This document shows, piece by piece, positions 20,721 through 62,115 of a stretch of 64,000 nucleotides of DNA. Position numbers and translations under genes: made by a program. Position 1 is the first letter of the stretch. Each line of letters starts with the position of its first letter. Origin of the DNA: Mustelus asterias. Its lineage: Eukaryota. The stretch covers positions 682,001 to 746,000 of the forward strand of contig NW_027590175.1 of assembly GCF_964213995.1 (NCBI RefSeq), given 5' to 3'. The notes beneath the pieces were generated by a model. It was given only the letters and a program-made list of their open reading frames with translations, had not been told where the DNA came from and searched no databases.

Positions 20721-20811
20721 TGCCGCTCACTGGGACCGGAATCCAACAGTCCGGGAGCTGGTTTGTTCACTGAGTTCCTGACATAACCATTTCCTCCATA
20801 TGACCAGAAGG

Positions 20812-20857
20812 ATGAGGTCGGCGATTTCTCTCAGTTTGTTGCTGGCTTTCTTATCCA
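20812..20857 (+). CDS. IGHV: IgM heavy chain leader exon (MRSAISLSLLLAFLS)
   Basis: ATG at 20812 (an in-frame upstream ATG lies at 20800), hydrophobic signal peptide, phase-1 donor GTGAGT at 20858 splicing in frame to the V exon. Confidence 0.93.
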
Positions 20858-20981: not shown

Positions 20982-21283
20982 GAGTCCAGTCGCAGGTTGT
21001 GTTGACTCAGCCAGAGGTAGCGACCGGGCGTCCCGGAGGCTCCCTGAGACTGACCTGTAAAACCAGTGGGTTCAATCTTGACAGCGACTGGATGAACTGG
21101 ATCCGAAAGATTCCCGGACAGGGGTTGGACTGGCTCCTTGACTACACAAGTTCATCGAGCAACAATTACTCCCCAGGGATTCAGTATCGATTTACAGCGT
21201 CCAAAGACCTTTCAAGTAATACCTTCGCTTTGGACATGACTGGTCTGACGAACGAAGACACCGCCATCTATTACTGTACATAT
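20982..21283 (+). CDS. IGHV: Unrearranged immunoglobulin VH segment ([11 protein letters not shown]...LTCKTSGF...WIRK...[10 protein letters not shown])
   Basis: Acceptor ttttacag at 20981. Open frame with the conserved first Cys, WIR Trp and DTAIYYC motif (ORF 20999..21340). Confidence 0.96.
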
Positions 21284-21322
21284 CCCAGCGATAGGGACCA
21301 GGGCTGCCCCCGGACAAGAACA
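21284..21322 (+). other. VH 23-RSS with defective heptamer (CCCAGCG-23-ACAAGAACA)
   Basis: Heptamer position 21284-21290, exactly 23-nt spacer 21291-21313, nonamer 21314-21322. Confidence 0.85.
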
Positions 21323-21674
21323 GTTCGAGAAGGAATTTAACAACTTCCAACACAACCTGAAATTCAGTACCTCTTGTACATGTAATATTAACTGCAATGA
21401 TCTGAACCAGACAACTAGCTGATTCTTACCAAACTAACACAGCGAAAATGTAACGGTAAAACGTAACAGACAAACATAGAAAACGGGGTTGGACTGTGGC
21501 TGTGGTTATATTTACTATTGACACTTTCAACACTTCCAGACCTGCAAATAATGCTTATTTTAATATTTCTGACTTTGTGATCGATAAACTGCTGCCTAAC
21601 TGATAAATGAGATCAGAAATAACGTTCTATTTGAAGTGAATAGTGAGCGGCAGGACTGAACAGAGAGTGAGTGC

Positions 21675-21753
21675 AGTTTTTGTGCGGGTGTGTGTCACTG
21701 TGATATGTTGGGTCGAACTGGCAGGCACAGCTGTTACCGTCAATACAAAAACC
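21675..21753 (+). other. IGHD: Single DH segment (coding 21703-21725) flanked by 12-RSSs on both sides
   Basis: AGTTTTTGT-12-CACTGTG | ATATGTTGGGTCGAACTGGCAGG | CACAGCT-12-ACAAAAACC. Confidence 0.93.
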
Positions 21754-22070
21754 CCTCTCAGCACTTACTGATTGAGGCTGGATCAGTGTCACTTCTATAA
21801 TCCAACTATAATTTCAGTATAGTACTCTCGATGATCAGCATTGCCCGAATGGCAAGAATTAAAATGCAAACTCGATGATAATTGTTCGATTATCAGTTGT
21901 TGTTTTCAATAACATGTTCATGTGTTACTCTGTGAAATATAAATCATTAGGGTCATTTATGAAGAGCGAAAGGCATCCACAAATACAAATATAATTTTTT
22001 GAAGCTTCATTGATTTACTTGCCTTGTGCTTTGTGAATATTTAAAATAATGGTCTATTGTGTTTAGAGCA

Positions 22071-22109
22071 TGTTAATGTATGGTGCAGCCCAGAGAATGT
22101 AACACAGTG
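22071..22109 (+). other. JH 23-RSS (TGTTAATGT-23-CACAGTG), weak nonamer
   Basis: Heptamer 22103-22109 abuts the J coding end; 23-nt spacer; nonamer 22071-22079 deviates from GGTTTTTGT. Confidence 0.8.
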
Positions 22110-22156
22110 ACACTTCCCATCCTGGGGACAAGGGACCACGGTGACGGTGACTGCAG
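22110..22156 (+). CDS. IGHJ: JH segment (HFPSWGQGTTVTVTA)
   Basis: WGQG motif; phase-1 donor GTAAG at 22157. Confidence 0.95.
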
Positions 22157-25100
22157 GTAAGAACCGTGCACTTATTGAGCAACTGCTTCACTTGAGCCTT
22201 TGTTTTATTTTATTTCCTATTTTAGTAATTCATTAACTAATTGAAATGTGGGTTTGGTGGATTTTTTATTGAGATATTTTGCAATGGTCCATGTGATTTT
22301 GCTGAAAGGGTTGAAAAGTTCTGCTGCTTCTTGACAATAGGTGCTGCTAAGTTATTTAATCTCTGGTTGCTGTGATTTGGTGTTTATCTGTTGAGGGCAT
22401 TGTGTGGCTGGGTTACTGTAAATACCGAACTTCTGTTAAACAGTTATGCGTTTCTGCAATGTTTAAGCTCGGTGACATCAAATAGCTGCGAGTTGTACCA
22501 TCTACTGCACAAGTGTTTGAAATGTAACCCAATATTAACAAAATATGTTAAAATTGCTGTATTAATTTAGTGATCATGTTCCGTCTGCTCACAAATCTCG
22601 TGTTGTTGTGGCATATTTCTGTCCATTTAATTATTAATTGGGTTTGTCATTAACAGATTGGCTGGATTTTATATTGAGATTCTCTGTCAATTTTACATTT
22701 GGTTCTGTTGAAAGTATTTGTGGAATTGAGCTGCTTCTGCATGAAATGGGGTTCAGTCCCTCAGTGATGTGTTTTTTTGTGGTGAGGTGGTTGTGTGTCT
22801 GGGTGACTTTGAATAAGTAAAATGTGTGAAATTATTTGGTGTTTCTGTATTGCTTCTGCATTGTTTACACTCGGTGACACTGAGCAGTTACACTCTTTGT
22901 GATTGAATACAAACATTCAACACGTTTGAAACTGCTTGACGCATGATTGCAGGCAGAACTCAGGCAAGATTTATTGCAGTTTTAAAAAAAAATCTCAAAT
23001 GATAATTCCAGATTAAACTAAGGCACGGTTTACGCCGTTCGTTCAGAACATAGTTTGTCACTGAATTCACAATTTGTGATACCTGCAATGTTTAATTTCG
23101 GTGGCATCTGATGGCTGCAGCTTTTCCCATCGAAATGTTTAAATATGTTTGATGTCTCTTTGAAATATGATCCAATATGAATAAAATGTGATAAAGTTTC
23201 AATATTAATTTGTTGGACATATTCCACCTCTTCACAATATTATTGTTATCATTCCAGATTGCTGTTTAGTTTAATAATTTGGTGACGAGCTCTTCTGCTG
23301 GATTCCGTATTGAGATCTTCGTGCGATGTTACATTTATTTCTGTTGAATGGATAATTGAGCTGCTTCTCCATAAAACGGGGTTCATTCCCTCGGTGATGT
23401 GTTTTAGTATTTTTCTGCTGAGGAGATTGTGTATCTGGGTGACTTAAAATGTTTATAATTTGTGGAATGGTTTGGAGTTTCGGTATTGCTTCTGCATTGT
23501 TTAAACTGGTTGACACTGCGTGGTGCCACGTCTTCTGGTTCAATGCATTTGAAAATACTTTAGCACGATTGTCGGGGAAAAAACAGGCAGGTTTCGGAAA
23601 AAAATGAAATAAAGATACACTTTTATAAATGTAAATGATGATTGCAGATTAAAATACAGCATGGCTGAAAAAAAATCATTCAGAATATAATTCATTGCTA
23701 CAATCAATACTTAATTAACAAGTTTGAAGTTTGTAGAGTGAAATTAATATAATTGAAACAATTGCTTCGCGGTAATGTACTCCTTATTCACCAAAAATAT
23801 TTGATGTTGATATCATTAATCCCCTTTCACAACTATGCTGTGCATTGCACACAATTAACATAAACGAGAAAGGTTCTAGGCTGAAAACATTTTGTGATTA
23901 TTTCTGAAACTATTTCAATGAGTACAGGCTGATTCTACATCAACGTTTAGTTCAACAAGATATTTTGAAATAATCGTTTTGCGCTAATTAAGTTTACCGT
24001 CACTTAAATAGGAGTTTTACATTGCAGTTTGGTAATGTATGTATCCTGTTATTGCATTTCTTTTCGGTTGCAGGCGCAGCCAAATTATTGCTTTAAAGTA
24101 ATATGTAGATAGATAATTAATCACTACTCTAATCTTAAACAGTTTTCTGAGAGCTGAAGTTCGCTAGCATGAAGTAATTGTTCATTTGGTTGTTTTTGAA
24201 TTGTGGTAAGGTGTCGACAGGTGCTAGCCAGACAACGGCAAGTAAATGCTTGAAATTCACACTGATTAGTTTAATTACGGAAGTTTTATATTAGTTCTGC
24301 TCCTAGCAATAACATTCTGTCTTCCAATACTGCTGCAGACAGAATAAAATGATAGGAAGAACAAATGTCAGCACAGACGAATTTACTCAATCTGAAACTT
24401 CTGTTTAATTATTATTAAATATTAAACTGAAGAACAAAATCTCGACTTATTTTTCATCATGTCTCAGTCTTGCAGAGGATTTGAATAAATTGTCCTCATT
24501 GTGTTTTGTACTGTTTTATGTGTAACTTTTTCAATTAAACAATATGATCAACAATTTAATTACAGCAATGATCTGAATGATTAAATCAAGGAAGCAATTT
24601 TATTGATCACAAACAGCCATGCTTTACAGTATACTTGGGCCTTGAAGTATGCATTTTTAATCAATTTGTGGGTAAATAGAAGGCTTTTCGTAAAAGACAA
24701 AAATCAAATAATAAAATGTGAATAGATGAAGGTAAAATTATTAAAGATGTCTGAACGTTTCCATCCAGTAATTTGATGTTAATTGTTTAACACTGTTTAA
24801 GATTTCGTTGAAACCCAATTACTTAACAACGTTCTATGCAGAAGGGAGTTTTGAATTATTGAGAACTGTTTTTTATTATATAAAACAAATCAGCTGACAG
24901 GAGAAAGAACTGGCAATTAATAATAAGTTATATATAATATTCGTGCTAATTAATTCAACAAAAATGACCTCCAACAATCAAATTTAACGGTTTTAGAGAA
25001 TATTTAATTGTATGGAAAATGAATTCAGAAAACAATACATTACTCAGCTGTAATCTGCTCTATAAGGTGTTTTGCTTCGATTATTTTGTTGATTACAGTT

Positions 25101-25939
25101 AATTAAGAAATTAGATCGAATCAGGTAATGATTTTCAATTTAAATATTTCCTGGTTTGTTTAATTCTTACTGTAACACCATATCTGTTAGGGAAATTAAA
25201 CTACACTGAATCTGTTAAATTCGATGTGCTCATTTTCAGCGAAATTGCATTTTTCTGCCCAGTTTTCGAGATTTAAAAGAGACAGGGGAAAATTATTAAA
25301 AGCTGACCCACCGGCCCTGGGAATATTGGATTTTACAGTGTAATTCGATTTTACAGTCGCTTGCGAGGCCAAAATTTGATATCTTTCGCAAGGGTCAAAT
25401 TTTGACTTGAAGTATCCTTGAATGACTGCAGTCCATGTGGTGCCAATGTATCTGCTGTGCTGTTGCAGAGGAAGTCCCAGGACTTTGACCCAGCGACAGT
25501 GAAGCAACAGCGATATTGTTTCAAATATAGACTTGCAAAGGATATAGATCGGGTGGTAGTCCACCCCCCCCCACCCCCCCCCCCCCCAACCAACCTCTCT
25601 CTCTCTCTCTCCCTCACACACATACGCACACACAGACATGCACACACCCGAACACACACACACACACCCTCTCACACATGCACACCCTCTCTTACACAGA
25701 GGCTCACTGTCCCATACACGTACACGCTCAGGCTCTCATACATAATCTCTCTTTCTTATCCACACTCACACACATTTATACATGTCTCTCACACATTCGC
25801 CCTCACATACACCCAACACACAATCTCTCTCTATACACACACAGTCATACGCACGCACACTATCTCACACACGTTTTTTCACATTTTTTCTCTCATTTTT
25901 TCTCTCTCATTTTATCACAAACACGCACTCGACGGACAT

Positions 25940-26680
25940 TTCATGCCCTCAGGCCTGTCCATGGCCTGCTGCAATATTCCAGTGAAGCTCAACACAAACC
26001 GGAGGAACAACACCTCATCTTTCGCTTCGGCGCTTTACTGGCTTCCGGCCTCAACATCGAATTCAATGTCAGATGATTAGCTCTACCCCACTTGGAACCC
26101 CTTGTTTCTTTTTTTTAATGTTCTTTACCTTTGTTTTTCCCCATCTTTCTTTTCTCTCGTTTATTTTCCTTTTTAACATTTTTCTACTTTCATTTCCGAT
26201 CTTTTATTTTTCATTGTATTCGTCTTTCTTTATTTTTCTTCCCACTCTACTCTTACCCCCATTTTACTTTTTTCCTTCTTTCCTTACCCCCCCCCCCCTA
26301 CCCTTTATTCTTTCATTCATCCCTTTTCCTCTTCTTTTCTACTTTTTTCCCACGCTTCTCCCTTTGTCACCCCTCCCCCAACTTCAGGGCCATCTGTTAC
26401 ATCTCTAGTTTACCCTCTGATTTTGACTTCTCTGCCGTTTGGCCATTCACACATTCTATTCTCTCCATGGACTTCCATCAGCACTTCTTAGCACCTTTCC
26501 CTTCGTTCTTGCCTATGACTCATCTTTTATTCCCTCACCCTACAGCATAAATATCTTTCAGTATCTATGCTCTTTAGTTTTGACAAACGGTCGTCCAGAC
26601 TCGAAACATCAGCTCTTTTCTCTCCTTACCGATGCTGCCAAACGTACTGAGCTTGTCCAGCATTTTCCCTTTTTATCAGA
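25940..26680 (+). mobile_element. Penelope-like element 3' fragment
   Basis: ORF end EEQHLIFRFGALLASGLNIEF, typical of the Penelope GIY-YIG C-terminus; pyrimidine-rich tail; degenerate hammerhead-like ttgacaa...ctcgaaac at ~26580-26610. Confidence 0.7.
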
Positions 26681-27171
26681 GGTTCATGTTCTCTCAAACG
26701 TGGCCCTCACGCACACACCAACTATGTTTCATTTGCACGTTCTTTCTCTCTCACTTTTCCCTTCACACACTCTCATACGCACTCAAGTATAAAATAACGC
26801 TGCAAACACACACATTTTCTCTTTCTCTCTCTCTCTCTCTGAGACACACACACTCACGCACACTGTCTCTCACACACAGAGACACTGCCTCACACATGGA
26901 AAATCTCAGGCTCTCACATGCAAATGTCTCTCACACACTCCCTCTCAGACGAACGACACACAATCTCGGCCACACACACGTCTCTCACTCTCCTTTCTCA
27001 CGCAAACACACACCACACACGATCTTTCTTTCATTCTCTCTCTCTCACACACAAACACACGCACGCAAACACACCTACACACACACAAACACACACCCAC
27101 ACTGTCTAACACATATTATCCCCAACACCAGCACTCCACAAGCTATGTCCTCAGCCCCTTACTAAACTTCT

Positions 27172-27410
27172 TATAGTAAGAAGGTTAAATTCCAACAGGT
27201 TTATTTGGAATCACGACCTTTCGGAGCTCTGCTCCTTCGTCACGGGAGTCCACTTTGAGCCGACGGCTTGCGGTGCCGATGATAGCAATGATGTGTAGAT
27301 GCCAGCGTTGGACTGGGGTGGGTACAGTAAGAAGTCGCACAACACCAGGTTAAAGTCCAACAGGTTCATTTGGAATCATGAGCTTTCATAGCGCTGCTCC
27401 ATTATCTGAT
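27172..27410 (-). mobile_element. Two tandem Penelope-like terminal fragments
   Basis: Repeated aggttaaagtccaacaggtttatttggaatcac...ctttcggagc motif. Confidence 0.6.
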
Positions 27411-28335
27411 CCACCCTCACTGACACACATTGACTCACTTATCCTCACTGACCCAAACTCACCCACACTCACTCATTCACCCTCATTCACCCACCCACAC
27501 TCACGCTCAAACAATCACCCTTACTCGCACACCCTCAGTCACTTACACTCTCTCAAACATCCACACTCACCCCGACTCACTCACATGCTCTTATGCACCC
27601 TCTTTCGCTCACACACTCTCATTCATCCACCTTCATTCACTCATCCCCACTCACCCAGCCTCATTCACCCACACTCACCTTCACCCACCCTCACCCTGAC
27701 ACACCCATCGGCATTCATCCTCACTCAACCTCACTCACTCACCATCTCTCAGTCACCCACGCTCACTCTTCCTCAATCACTCGCCGTCACTGAAACTCAA
27801 TCACCTTCACTCACACATCCTGATTCACTCACAATCGCTCACCCTCACTCAGTCACTCATTACAATTCACTAAGACTCACTAATTCACTCTCACTCACTT
27901 TCACCACCTCACTCAGTCACCCTGGTTCACTCACCCAACCTCAGTTACTCTCAGTGACACTCACACACTGTCCAACATCATTCACTCATTCTCACTCACT
28001 CACTTTCACACTACCTCACTCACACAGCGTCACTCAGTCGCCCTCACTCACCCTCACTCACTCACGTTCACTCACACTCACTCATATGCACTCATCTTCA
28101 TCCATCCCCATGCACTCACTCACTCATTGAAACTTAGTTGCGTCACTCACCCTCATTCACTCACCTTCACTCACACTCACTCATGTGCACTCATCTTCAT
28201 CATCCCCATGCACTTATTCAGTCACTGAAACTTCTTTGTGTCACTCACTCTCACTCACTCACCATCATTCAATCAGCCTCACTCACTCACCCTCATCCCT
28301 CACCCAGCATCACTCACTCACACTCTCCCACTCAC
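27410..28335. repeat. (CACT/CACC)n-derived low-complexity tract
   Basis: Top strand strongly depleted of G. Confidence 0.9.
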
Positions 28336-28449
28336 AGTCGCGAAATCGGCGGCGGTGGGTGGGGAGGGAGGTGGGGAGGTGGTGGGGGGGGGGGGTGGTC
28401 TATTCAACAACAGAGAACTGAAGTGAGATCTGCAGACGAGTGATGTCCA

Positions 28450-29105
28450 AATGCAGGAGAATGCCAAGAGAGAGATGAAGGGAAGCTCAAGAGCCAGGGA
28501 AACTGCACAGAGGCGGGGAAACCACAGGATGCAAGTGGAAATGGCCGACAGCCAGGGAAATTCAGAGACCAGGTTAAAGGATGGACAGCCGGTGGAACGG
28601 GCACAAAGATGAAAGGAAGTACAGAGAGTCGGAGAAAATTACAGAATGCCTTGGAAAAGAGTACAGAACCGGAGGAAAATGCAGGGAGTCGGGGGGAAAG
28701 GGCTGAGAACCATGGGAAAGGGCATACAGCCGGGTGATTGGGAAAAGAGCTGGCGGGAAAGAGCAGAGAGCCAGGGGGAATGGCAGGATGCCGGTGAAAA
28801 AAGCAAGGAGTCGGGGGAAAGGGCAAAGAGGCGGGGAAAAGGGCAGAGAGCCGGGGGACAATGGTAGAGAGAGAGTGGAGATACAGGAAGGAACGTAGCA
28901 TACAGAAAGTCCAGAAAGAGCAGAGAAAGGGCACAGAGCCTGGGGAAAGTGTAGGGAGAGGGAGTCATGGCAGAGACGCGGGGAAAAGCGAAGTGGGGGG
29001 GCGGGGGTCAAATGTGCAGAGAGCATAGTGAGACGGGTCAAAGCGCAGGGAGCCGGGGAAAAATGTGGAAAGCCGAGGGATCGGGGAAAGATCCGGGAAA
29101 GAGTA
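28450..29105. repeat. Purine/G-rich ~20-bp minisatellite (GGGAAAGGGCAGAGAGCCGG-like)
   Basis: Roughly 30 degenerate units. Confidence 0.85.
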
Positions 29106-29271
29106 GACAGCTAACTTTCCGTAGGCGAGGGGAAAGGTTGGAATATGGAGTTAACAGCACAATCAGTTCAGCCATGATGTTACTGAATGGAGGAGAAAGC
29201 TCAAGGGGCGGAATGTCCTTCTCATGCTTTGAATGTATGGTCCTAAGATTAGAGAAAATTGTTTAATTATT

Positions 29272-30908: not shown

Positions 30909-31295
30909 TTTCCAAAACTGCAACGACATAAATGTAGAGACAACTTCCTCCTCACCAACTGTTGATGATTGAGAAACAAATGGTCGCAGAGTTGATGGAC
31001 TGAATCCGCTGTCTCTTCTCTTTTGATCCAATGCCATGTATGTCATTCAGATAACGTCAAAATGTTTTTTTTCTCCAATGTGACAGAGACGGAGAAAGAG
31101 ATGTGAGTTTCTACAGAGGGAAGGAACAGGTGATGGTTTCTAACTAATAGCACAAATAAAATCTCAAATGTGATGTAGGTTTTGTTCGGAAATATTAGCA
31201 TAACCTCACAGTTCTGGTCAAATCCTGAAATGTCTGCTGGCTTAGTAATCGCAAATAACAGAGTCTAACTTGTTATATCGGCCATTCTTTCCCAG

Positions 31296-31595
31296 CGACA
31301 CCGTCTCCGCTCGTTCTCCACAACCTGGTCTCCTCCTGTCAGCAACACAACACCGACGGCACCGTCACCTACGGCTGCTTGGCGATGGACTACTTCCCAG
31401 AAATCACCAGGCTGACCTGGAAGAAAGATGGACAGCCGATCACCACTGGAGTTAAGACTTACCCATCAATGAGAAACACAAAGGGAACCTACACCCTAAG
31501 CAGCCAATTAACCATCACCGAGTCAGAGGGAGCATGCAGCAACATCAACTGTGAGGTTCGACACAGCGGTTCAGATAAGAGCATTGAAATGCAAT
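31296..31595 (+). CDS. IGHM: IgM constant exon Cmu1
   Basis: Acceptor tttcccag. Translates [35 protein letters not shown]...WKKDG...[15 protein letters not shown]; donor GTAAG at 31596; 300 nt. Confidence 0.95.
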
Positions 31596-31802
31596 GTAAG
31601 TGTTGTAGAAATTGTACATAACAAAATTCCTTTGATTAACCTGTATGTGACATTTGTTATAACTAATTTATAGAGATCTGCATATTCTTGACCCCTGGAA
31701 TATCCAGGTTTGTGTCCATTGACTGCAAATGAATTGATAATACAGAATGCATTTGATTGATCAACATCTTCTGCTGAAAATGATTAACATGTGTTTCTGA
31801 AG

Positions 31803-32117
31803 GTCCTCGAGATGACATCGCACCAACCGTTATCCTCACCGTGAGTTCCAGTGAAGAAATCACAAGAAGCAAATTTGCAACCGTTATCTGTTCAATTATC
31901 GATTTCTTTCCAAAGTCAATGACGGTGAAGTGGCTGAAGAATGGACAACCCATGGATTCAGGAATTGTCACCTCTCCCGCCTGGAATGCGAATGGGAACT
32001 TCTCGGCGAGCAGTGGGCTGACAGTCTCCGCTGGAGAATGGTTCAGCAAAGCAGTCTATACCTGCCAGGTCACTCATCAAGGCCTCCTCCAAAGTCGAAA
32101 CATCACTGGATCTCTGG
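31803..32117 (+). CDS. IGHM: IgM constant exon Cmu2
   Basis: [37 protein letters not shown]...WLKNG...YTCQVTHQ...ITGSL; AG at 31801-2, donor GTAAG at 32118. Confidence 0.95.
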
Positions 32118-32795: not shown

Positions 32796-33104
32796 ATTCT
32801 TACCAGAATGCTGATTCCACCTTGACAATACTGCCACCACCAATTGAACAGGTCTTACTGGAGGCTACTGTAACCTTAACCTGTGTCATATCTCATGCTC
32901 CTTATGGACTCAACGTGTCCTGGAGCCAAGACAAGAAGGCTTTGAAATCAGAAATTGCTGAAAAGCCTGGAGAGGATCCTTACAGCGTCGTCAGCAACTT
33001 AAACATCTCAACACAAGCCTGGCTGAGTGGGACTGTGTTTGACTGCATTGCGAACCATGAGGATCTGCCGACACCTTTAAGAAAATCCGTCCACAAGGAA
33101 GAAG
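32796..33104 (+). CDS. IGHM: IgM constant exon Cmu3
   Basis: [43 protein letters not shown]...[22 protein letters not shown]; acceptor tttgcag, donor GTGAGT at 33105. Confidence 0.95.
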
Positions 33105-35145: not shown

Positions 35146-35540
35146 CAGATCCAAATCCGCGGGAACCGTCCGTTTCTGTCCTCATGCCCTCCGCAGAAGA
35201 AGTCTCCGCTCAAAAAATAGTCTCCCTCTCCTGCTTAGTGAGAGGTTTCTCCCCCCGAGAGATCTTCGTCAAGTGGACCTTCAAAGACAAGCCGGTGAAC
35301 CCCGGGAACTACAGTAACACGAAGGTGATGGCGGAGAACGGCAATAGCTCCTTCTTCATGTACAGTCTGTTATCCATTGCAGCGTTGGAGTGGGCCAGCG
35401 GCGCTTCTTACTCCTGTGTGGTGGGACATGAAGCCATCCCCTTGAAGATCATCAACAGAACGGTTGATAAATCCAGCGGTAAACCCAGTTTTGTGAACAT
35501 TTCTCTTGCACTGATGGACACCGTTAATTCCTGTCATTGA
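35146..35540 (+). CDS. IGHM: IgM constant exon Cmu4 plus secretory tailpiece
   Basis: [32 protein letters not shown]...[11 protein letters not shown]...DKSS|[20 protein letters not shown]. Internal donor G|GTAAA at 35478/35479 for TM splicing; the tail has an NIS sequon and a penultimate Cys. Confidence 0.96.
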
Positions 35541-58724: not shown

Positions 58725-59295
58725 AGCTGACAGTGACTTTCCCAATCAGCGGATCATCGTCATTTTAGCCATTCTCTTCCTTCTCTTCCGTCACACAATC
58801 GACAGGTTTCTCATTTTTTAAAAATACTCTGCTTATTTCCACATTTGTCACCTGCGATCGAGTCCATGGTCGTGAAAACGATGACTTTGCACCATTGGAA
58901 CACCCGAGTTCCGCCATCACCAGCTCAATGTTGCCTTGTCTATCATTCCTTGTGTCAAATAATACACCCTCCCTAGTTTTCTGTGCCGAACCTCGCCTTC
59001 TGCCCTTTTTCAGGAGTGACCCCTGACTTTAAAACTAGAAAATGTAGGGGAAACCCATCAGACTAATTAAAATTTGCAAATATATGAATAATAGAACTTT
59101 TCCCTCAGTCTGCAATGAATGTGATTTGGAAAACAAATTCTGCCCAGTTTCATGCCGTGGGAGGCGGACGCGATAAGTGTCTTGGAATTATTCCTGTAAT
59201 TAGAACATAGAACATAGAACATTACAGCGCAGAACAGGCCCTTCGGCCCACGATGTTGCACCGACCAGTTAAAAAAAAAACTGTGACCCTCCAAC

Positions 59296-62115
59296 CTAAA
59301 CCAATTTCTTTTCGTCCATGAACCTATCTACGGATCTCTTAAACGCCCCCAAACTAGGCGCATTTACTACTGATGCTGGCAGGGCATTCCAATCCCTCAC
59401 CACCCTCTGGGTAAAGAACCTACCCCTGACATCGGTTCTATAACTACCCCCCCTCAATTTAAAGCCATGCCCCCTCGTGCTGGATTTCTCCATCAGAGGA
59501 AAAAGGCTATCACTATCCACCCTATCTAAACCTCTAATCATCTTATATGTTTCAATAAGATCCCCTCTTAGCCGCCGCCTTTCCAGCGAAAACAATCCCA
59601 AATCCCTCAGCCTCTCCTCATAGGATCTCCCCTCCATACCAGGCAACATCCTGGTAAACCTCCTCTGCACCCTCTCCAAAGCCTCCACATCCTTCCTGTA
59701 ATGTGGGGACCAGAACTGCACACAGTACTCCAAGTGCGGCCGCACCAGAGTTGTGTACAGTTGCAACATAACGCTACGACTCCTAAATTCAATCCCCCTA
59801 CCAATAAACGCCAAGACACCATATGCCTTCTTAACAACCTTATCTACTTGATTCCCAACTTTCAGGGATCTATGCACACATACACCTAGATCCCTCTGCT
59901 CCTCCACACTATTCAAAGTCCTCCCGTTAGCCCTATACTCAACACATCTGTTATTCCTACCAAAGTGAATTACCTCACACTTCTCCGCATTAAACTCCAT
60001 CCGCCACCTCTCGGCCCAACTTTGCAACCTGTCTAAGTCTTCCTGCAAACTACGACACCCTTCCTCACTGTCTACCACACCACCGACTTTGGTGTCATCA
60101 GCAAATTTGCTAATCCACCCAACTATACCCTCATCCAGATCATTAATAAATATTACAAACAGCAGTGGCCCCAAAACAGATCCCTGAGGTACACCACTTG
60201 TAACCGCACTCCATGATGAATATTTACTATCAACCACCACCCTCTGTTTCCTATCCGCTAGCCAATTCCTGATCCAATTTCCTAGATCACCCCCAATCCC
60301 ATACATCTGCATTTTCTGCAGAAGCCTACCATGGTGAACCTTATCAAACGCCTTACTAAAATCCATATATACCACGTCCACTGCCTTGCCCCCATCCACC
60401 TCCTTGGTCACTTTCTCAAAAAACTCAATAAGGTTAGTAAGGCACGACCTACCTGCCACAAAACCATGCTGACTATCACCTATCAATTCATTACTCTCCA
60501 AATAACTATAAATCCTATCCCTTATAATTTTTTCCAACATCTTGCCGACAACAGAAGTGAGACTCACCGGTCTATAATTCCCGGGGAAGTCTCTGTTCCC
60601 CTTCTTAAACAATGGGACAACATTCGCTAACCTCCAATCTTCTGGTACTATACCAGAGGCCAACGACGACCTGAAGATCAGAGCCAGAGGCTCTGCAATC
60701 ACTTCTCTTGCCTCCCAGAGAATCCTTGGATAAATCCCATCCGGACCAGGGGATTTATCTATTTTCAGACCCTCCAGAATATCCTGCACATCCTCCTTAT
60801 CAACTGTAATACTGTCTATTCTACTCCCTTGCAACCCAGTGTCCTCCTCAGCTATATTCATGTCCCCTTGCGTGAACACCGAAGAGAAATATTGGTTCAA
60901 TGCTTCACCAATCTCCTCCGGTTCCACACATAACTTCCCTCTGCCATCTATAACTGGCCCTAAACTTGCCCTAACCAACCTTCTGTTCTTGACATACCTA
61001 TAGAACGCCTTAGGATTCTCTTTAACCCTATCCGCCAAAGTCTTCTCATGTCCCCTTTTAGCCCTTCTAAGCTCGCTCTTCAACTCCCTCTTAGCCAATC
61101 TAAAGCTTTCTAGTGCACTACCCGAGTGCTCACGTCTCATCCGAACATAAGCCTCCTTTTTCTTTTTAACCAACAAAGAAACTTTTTTGGTGCACCACGG
61201 TTCCCTAGCCCTACCAATTCCTCCTTGCCTGACAGGGACATACCTATCACAGACTCGCAGTAGCTGCTCCTTGAAAAAACTCCACATGTCGGACGTTCCC
61301 AGTCCCTGTAATCTCCTAGTCCAACCTATGTTTCCTAATTCTCTCCTAATAGCCTCATAATTACCCTTCCCCCAGCTAAAACCACTGGCCCGAGGTTCAT
61401 GCCTATCCCTTTCCATCACTAAGGTGAACGTAACCGAATTGTGGTCACTATCACCAAAATGCACACCAACTTCCAAGTCTAGCACCTGGTCTGGCTCATT
61501 TCCCAGCACCAGATCCAATATAGCCTCACCTCTAGTTGGCCTGTCTACATACTGAGTCAAAAAACCTTCCTGCACGCTTTGAACAAAAACTGACCCCTCT
61601 AACGAGCTAGAGCTATAACAATTCCAGTCAATATTAGTCAAGTTAAAATCCCCCATAACAATTGCCCTATTACTTTCACTCCTAAGCAGGATTGACTCCG
61701 CAATCCTTTCCTCAACCTCTCTAGAACTTTTAGGAGGTCTATAAAAGACTCCCAACAGGGCGACCTCTCCTCTCCTATTTCTAATCTCCGCCCATACTAC
61801 CTCAACAGATAAGTCCTCATCAAACCTCCTCTCTGACACTGTGATACAATCTCTGACCAATAATGCTACCCCTCCCCCTCTTCTACCTCCTTCCCTACTT
61901 CGACTAAAACATTTGAACCCCGGGACCTGCAGCATCCATTCCTGCCCCTGCTCTATCCATGTCTCTGAAATAGCCACAACATCGAAGTCCCAGGTACTGA
62001 TCCACGCTGCAAGTTCACCCACTTTATTGCGAATACTCCTGGCATTGAAGTATACACATTTCAAACCCTGCTCCACCCCACCTCTGCAATGCCGTGCATT
62101 GCAGTCCCCATCCAT
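59296..62115 (-). CDS. CR1 ORF2 (APE endonuclease plus reverse transcriptase)
   Basis: NARS, SETW, GDFN and SDH endonuclease motifs; [17 protein letters not shown] and FADD RT motifs; 939 aa uninterrupted. Confidence 0.95.
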   Translation of the reverse strand: MDGDCNARHCRGGVEQGLKCVYFNARSIRNKVGELAAWISTWDFDVVAISETWIEQGQEWMLQVPGFKCFSRSREGGRRGGGVALLVRDCITVSERRFDEDLSVEVVWAEIRNRRGEVALLGVFYRPPKSSREVEERIAESILLRSESNRAIVMGDFNLTNIDWNCYSSSSLEGSVFVQSVQEGFLTQYVDRPTRGEAILDLVLGNEPDQVLDLEVGVHFGDSDHNSVTFTLVMERDRHEPRASGFSWGKGNYEAIRRELGNIGWTRRLQGLGTSDMWSFFKEQLLRVCDRYVPVRQGGIGRAREPWCTKKVSLLVKKKKEAYVRMRREHSGSALESFRLAKRELKSELRRAKRGHEKTLADRVKENPKAFYRYVKNRRLVRASLGPVIDGRGKLCVEPEEIGEALNQYFSSVFTQGDMNIAEEDTGLQGSRIDSITVDKEDVQDILEGLKIDKSPGPDGIYPRILWEAREVIAEPLALIFRSSLASGIVPEDWRLANVVPLFKKGNRDFPGNYRPVSLTSVVGKMLEKIIRDRIYSYLESNELIGDSQHGFVAGRSCLTNLIEFFEKVTKEVDGGKAVDVVYMDFSKAFDKVHHGRLLQKMQMYGIGGDLGNWIRNWLADRKQRVVVDSKYSSWSAVTSGVPQGSVLGPLLFVIFINDLDEGIVGWISKFADDTKVGGVVDSEEGCRSLQEDLDRLQSWAERWRMEFNAEKCEVIHFGRNNRCVEYRANGRTLNSVEEQRDLGVCVHRSLKVGNQVDKVVKKAYGVLAFIGRGIEFRSRSVMLQLYTTLVRPHLEYCVQFWSPHYRKDVEALERVQRRFTRMLPGMEGRSYEERLRDLGLFSLERRRLRGDLIETYKMIRGLDRVDSDSLFPLMEKSSTRGHGFKLRGGSYRTDVRGRFFTQRVVRDWNALPASVVNAPSLGAFKRSVDRFMDEKKLV

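Follow-up and report, generated by a model that had tools for sequence, protein, structure and literature searches.

A single D segment of D1 and D2 origin in a shark IgM minicluster: an inherited join probably made by RAG in the germline

The window analysed here, a stretch of 64,000 nucleotides of Mustelus asterias DNA, carries a complete IgM minicluster with an open leader, V, J, four C exons, a secretory tail and a transmembrane exon (Table 1), in which D1 and D2 have become one 23-bp D segment (21703-21725) with a 12-spacer RSS on either side. The D1-D2 join is inherited and not somatic, as it was found in four copies in the assembly and in a second species. A join made by RAG in the germline is the best reading of these data, and one that we regard as highly probable. 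Germline joins are already known from sharks, and the present one adds a well-supported case.

Table 1. Positions of the segments, signals and exons of the IgM minicluster in the window
Feature	Position	Strand	Remarks
Leader exon	20800..20857	+	ATG at 20800 or 20812; open
VH exon	20982..21283	+	Open; ends 6 nt past the second Cys codon
V 23-RSS	21284..21322	+	Heptamer CCCAGCG (21284-21290), nonamer intact; predicted weak or dead
V-D1 interval	21284..21702	+	419 bp; native to the window lineage
D1-type 5' 12-RSS	21675..21702	-	Nonamer AGTTTTTGT, 12-bp spacer, heptamer CACTGTG
Fused D, D1-derived part	21703..21713	+	3' end apparently untrimmed
Fused D, CG	21714..21715	+	N addition, or the lineage's own D ends having drifted (putative origin)
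Fused D, D2-derived part	21716..21725	+	First 2 nt of the family D2 missing
D2-type 3' 12-RSS	21726..21753	+	CACAGCT, 12-bp spacer, ACAAAAACC
J 23-RSS	22071..22109	-	Equal to family majority at 31/39 positions; nonamer 7/9
JH segment (WGQGTTVTVT)	22110..22156	+	Open in the window; one C71 copy has a stop in place of W
Cmu1 exon	31292..31597	+	Bounds approximate; open
Cmu2 exon	31817..32113	+	Bounds approximate; open
Cmu3 exon	32798..33103	+	Bounds approximate; open
Cmu4 exon with secretory tail	35148..35540	+	Bounds approximate; open
Transmembrane exon	43228..43362	+	Bounds approximate; open

In the protein search, the closest named proteins were shark IgM heavy chains (70%), and no member of the window lineage was present among the matches returned (7 and 8 matches, best 69-70%). 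The intron between J and Cmu1 contains a long simple-repeat tract, CA/TC- and GA-rich, at 25500-29200, and about 3.2 kb extra is present near 24570 in the copies on contig C71. Between Cmu4 and the transmembrane exon, an open frame was observed at 40230-41100, which we take to resemble a LINE fragment. Further downstream, 59206-61126 has a 98.7% inverted duplicate at C143:400000-401935, adjoining another IgM cluster.

The norm of V23/12 D1 22/12 D2 12/23 J is absent in the window, where one D is left and the D1-D2 interval is gone; an RSS scan of the stretch from V to J gave no further D. The V-D and D-J intervals were measured as 419 bp and 384 bp, which bears out the lone 23-bp 12/12 D that a sequence-only reading had placed about 420 bp from V and 385 bp from J. 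When compared with 16 two-D clusters, the D1-type 5' RSS was found to carry the majority base at 28/28 positions and the D2-type 3' RSS at 26/28, and because of this agreement neither can be taken as a chance match. The D itself is composed of 11 nt that are D1-like, the dinucleotide CG and 10 nt that are D2-like. A parse as D1 plus D2 scored 12, against -3 for D1 alone and -4 for D2 alone, and in 60 shuffles the best score was at most 11, none reaching 12. Since a parse as D2 plus D2 also scored 11, the first half is assigned to D1 by its flanks and not by the core. The same reading had described a D1-like and a D2-like half separated by CGA; the halves stand, whereas the middle is shortened to CG, as D2 homology begins at 21716, the position at which D2 contigs start to fit and at which the alignment also places the start of the homology.

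The origin of the two flanks was determined by a search of the same genome with 21300-22170, which gave 66 matches (from the 40 of 92 candidates that were scored). In most clusters the match fell into two pieces with about 370 bp more between them than in the window, and among the 30 loci fetched there were 18 with both Ds detected. In all 18 two-D loci, the 5' flank aligned upstream of D1 (75-79%) and never upstream of D2, and the counterpart of the 3' flank lay downstream of D2 (79-83%) and in no case downstream of D1. The missing piece runs from the 3' heptamer of D1 to the 5' heptamer of D2, about 376 bp, with both D cores retained; the deletion thus extends from RSS to RSS with the coding ends kept, as in germline-joined Ig clusters. 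The one-D layout is a derived loss from the two-D minicluster. These results agree with the earlier proposal that one interval is missing relative to two-D clusters, that the 5' flank is a V-D1 interval and the 3' flank a D2-J interval with the break inside the D, and that only the Ds are joined. A simple deletion of D1, in which both flanks would be D2-type, was ruled out by the D1-type 5' flank, and a single D as the family norm was ruled out by the presence of a D1 3' RSS upstream at 54 of 76 sites.

A deletion independent of RAG, or an unequal crossover between D1 and D2, could also have removed the interval. D1 and D2 have common bases around their 5' heptamers, and three decayed single-D clusters in which a D2 core is all that is left after a D1-type RSS, together with the two-D cluster L041 with its D1-like D2, indicate that D1/D2 exchanges do occur in this genome. 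Such a crossover within the 5'-heptamer homology, however, yields a D2 of 9-13 bp, whereas the D in the window has 23 bp and both cores, and neither break is more than about 3 nt away from its RAG cut site; we therefore judge this origin unlikely.

Evidence for inheritance came from the assembly and from public reads. A search of the assembly for the D 23-mer, allowing up to 2 mismatches, gave four identical copies and no further match (control 0). The copy on C88, possibly the second haplotype, agrees with the window at 99.8-99.9% over 40 kb, and the two copies on C71 are 97.6-99.4% identical over tens of kb, with indels, one of them having a stop in J. Ten public runs contain part of the window, no RNA run of this species being among those listed, and contigs were compared from 8 of 11 listed runs. 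A contig of X4 spans 21355-21930 and one of X1 covers 21676-22170, each with 0 differences, although X1-X4 belong to one study and may represent the assembled animal; samples S1 and S3 likewise yielded short-read contigs with the fused joint. In organism B, a second and closely related species (run X5, another study), a contig carries 21703-21833 with one difference, at 21739 in the RSS spacer; this evidence consists of one contig of depth 4.05 from a small run. Runs X6, X7 and X8 gave short orthologue-like pieces, none spanning the D, and X10 gave other clusters only. An identical D in the four assembly copies and in the second species substantiates the earlier suggestion of a join fixed in the germline. 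A somatic V-DD-J intermediate is known from nurse shark thymocytes, as far as the accessible part of PMC2435157 reports, and the tissue of the runs is unrecorded. A lymphocyte intermediate of this kind, or an assembly artefact, is nevertheless extremely improbable here, as the same joint recurs in four diverged copies, in the S1 and S3 short-read contigs and in the second species.

Under the preferred reading, RAG would have cut at the 3' 22-RSS of D1 and the 5' 12-RSS of D2 in an ancestral germline, with the loss of about 376 bp, and the coding ends would have been joined with D1 apparently untrimmed, D2 shortened by 2 nt and 2 extra bases between them. Fixation of the join would predate both the divergence of the two species and the duplications from which the four copies arose, and the resulting 12/12 D would need two joins instead of three, which offers one route from the shark pair of a 12/22 and a 12/12 D to a single 12/12 D. 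The V heptamer has lost its CAC in this species, where V-to-D joining is therefore predicted to be blocked; in the close relative the V-D step was presumably completed, likely via a 4-bp overlap of V end and D start. Germline joining by RAG is established, according to the accessible text of PMC2193156, in which Lee et al. also report little sign of TdT in germline joins. The joint in the window shows 2 nt lost from D2, 2 extra bases and no P nucleotide, although the Ds available for comparison are distant. Most other joints in the genome are without extra bases, and that of C105/C597 has eight; the CG may thus be an N addition. Of the RAG/TdT join that had been proposed from the letters alone, the germline join holds and RAG is the best reading of the enzyme, whereas addition by TdT, with two bases only, is unproven. 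No unjoined sister of the window lineage was found among 40 scored of 205 V candidates, so trimming and N bases had to be read against distant Ds. Other lineages in the genome do show series from unjoined to joined clusters.

D2-type 3' RSS sites were counted throughout the genome. This census of 76 sites is a lower bound, as the D2 RSS of L013 escaped the search pattern. A D1 3' RSS was lacking at 22 of them, which comprised 12 V-DD-J sites (11 read directly and one inferred from a full-length match), 9 VDD-J sites and 1 site of another family. Two-D clusters are the majority, and V-DD-J is not rare in the genome, at 12/76 sites, among which the joint takes six different forms. For two of the DD joints, a VDD-J cluster with the same joint is present alongside the V-DD-J one. 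The first belongs to a near-identical trio in three states, namely L026 (C127) as V-D-D-J, L005 (C306) as V-DD-J and L025 (C667) as VDD-J, and the VDD-J joint of the C667 type is also present in organism B. A second series sharing its DD joint is formed by L033/L034 (C773, C104) as V-DD-J and L074 (C110:860135) as VDD-J. Inherited joining thus appears stepwise: V-D-D-J passes into V-DD-J and this into VDD-J, as seen in two series of this genome and in one that spans species, which implies that germline RAG can revisit the same cluster.

The V heptamer of the window cluster, which the sequence-only reading had overlooked, reads CCCAGCG against CACAGCG in the family. It is unchanged in all copies (L001, L003, L004 and C88) and was also found in short-read contigs of X1 and X3. 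Alterations in the first three heptamer bases strongly lower recombination, as stated in the accessible part of PMC2193808, and without CAC the V-to-D step is predicted to be blocked. Judging from this heptamer, the cluster is probably stalled in this species, and the block would be recent. A cryptic 23-RSS at 21438 was considered as a substitute and taken as chance, because a stop at 21337 precedes it in the V frame. The window lineage has no close relative: five separate segment trees gave it a stem of 0.12-0.19, and the V that comes next shares 82-83% identity in the own-genome search (40 scored of 205 candidates). Relative to the family majority, the D RSSs are better preserved (28/28 and 26/28) than the intervals (193/275 and 257/315), and the C exons gave a dN/dS of 0.35-0.47 when compared with five two-D clusters, which among themselves gave 0.14-0.36. 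The preserved D RSSs and the C-exon ratios together point to selection over much of the lineage's branch. A long-dead pseudogene was ruled out by five C exons free of stops in four copies and by the same dN/dS.

A 4-bp repeat was observed at the borders of the V-D interval. The last 4 nt of V (21280-21283) are identical to the first 4 nt of D (21703-21706), just outside both heptamers, and the contig of organism B joins 21279 to 21703 with the repeat present once. The main reading of this repeat is forward joining by microhomology, the likely direction of change at the repeat resting on two species, and the contig of organism B is most likely the next joining step. An exact search of this genome gave 0 matches to a V-to-D joined form of the window lineage. 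The repeat also resembles a published sign of transposition by RAG, a 3-5-bp duplication flanking an RSS-bordered segment as compared with an uninterrupted form (accessible part of PMC2193153). The V-D interval could accordingly be an RSS-bounded fragment that RAG re-inserted into a joined VDD exon with a 4-bp target-site duplication, in which case organism B would either have kept the form without interruption or have rejoined exactly at a later time. The same 4 bases outside both heptamers and their single copy in organism B are what this would leave behind; moreover, the overlap is 0 in 22 and 2 in 2 of the 24 other rows, and V continues for 6 nt past its second Cys codon in the window versus 9 in all 24, being 3 nt shorter. 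Against it, the V-D interval lies on the same long private branch as the other segments (0.19 vs 0.12-0.16), the segment trees are concordant and no close donor was found among 27 rows, so that a recent donor among those rows is excluded. Re-insertion would also need an exact restoration of the native start of D1, and family V ends and D1 starts already match at 3/4 bases. The C667 cluster shows a forward join of the same geometry as that of organism B, the whole V end being kept and 4 nt of D lost. An open-and-shut joint is one option for the short V end, comparable to the altered D2 end at an intact RSS in C105 and C597. On balance, we give re-insertion only a slight chance. Were the repeat the scar of a transposition, there would be direct evidence of RAG still being able to split genes in a vertebrate germline, in a natural re-splitting of an antibody gene whose uninterrupted form survives in a close relative.

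The forward-joined cluster can be set beside several known systems, each described here from the accessible part of its source. In nurse shark IgNAR type III, D1 and D2 are fused in the germline (PMC4622739), and the window cluster resembles it in having two Ds germline-fused, V and J free and one rearrangement fewer; it differs in being IgM, in having one 12/12 D left where IgNAR type III has two Ds, in its damaged V RSS and in being known from the gene only. Germline-joined IgH clusters of horn shark and skate have been reported as VD-J, VD-DJ, VDD-J and VDJ (PMC2193153, PMC5192425, PMC4279169, PMC2193156). These share with it the minicluster layout, the RSS-to-RSS deletion and fixation in the germline beside unjoined clusters, but their reported states have V joined, whereas here V is free and the Ds are fused. 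The somatic V-DD-J intermediate of nurse shark lymphocytes (PMC2435157) has an identical configuration and indicates that the order of joining is not strict; the join in the window, in contrast, is inherited, duplicated and common to two species. Nurse shark NS4 light chain genes are joined in germ cells (PMC2193156), and with them the clusters of this genome have in common repeated independent germline joins, apparent trimming and few N bases. Lee et al. (2000) sought a duplication left by re-splitting in the NS4 genes and found none (PMC2193156); the split NS4 genes have no 3-5-bp duplication at their RSS borders, unlike the 4-bp repeat at the V-D borders here. Neither a germline IgM V-DD-J nor a target-site duplication in a shark Ig gene was found in the accessible text of the literature searched, a scope that most subscription papers lie outside; the former may be in print.

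Several other clusters showed features of their own. L033/L034, L032 (C110:182709) and L074 are of one cluster type with two different DD joints, and the J tryptophan codon is altered in L032-L034. L073 (C105) and L075 (C597) are two identical VDD-J copies with 8 extra bases between V and D1, and their D2 3' end is changed beside an intact RSS, like an open-and-shut joint. L041 (C166) carries a D2 with a D2-type RSS but an 11-bp core that is D1-like, possibly as a result of gene conversion. The decayed single-D clusters L052 (C143:405626), L053 and L069 have an eroded 5' heptamer, and a repeat is inserted in the V of L052. V is joined to D1 only in L015 and L019-L021, which are VD-D-J clusters. 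L077 (C71:1564533), of a divergent family, has a D1-like 22-RSS behind its V end and then a single D, and is probably VD-D-J as well. Finally, in run X8, a shark metagenome compared with 21635-22170 of the window, a contig joins a D1-type 5' RSS to J, which corresponds to the V-DDJ state of another cluster.
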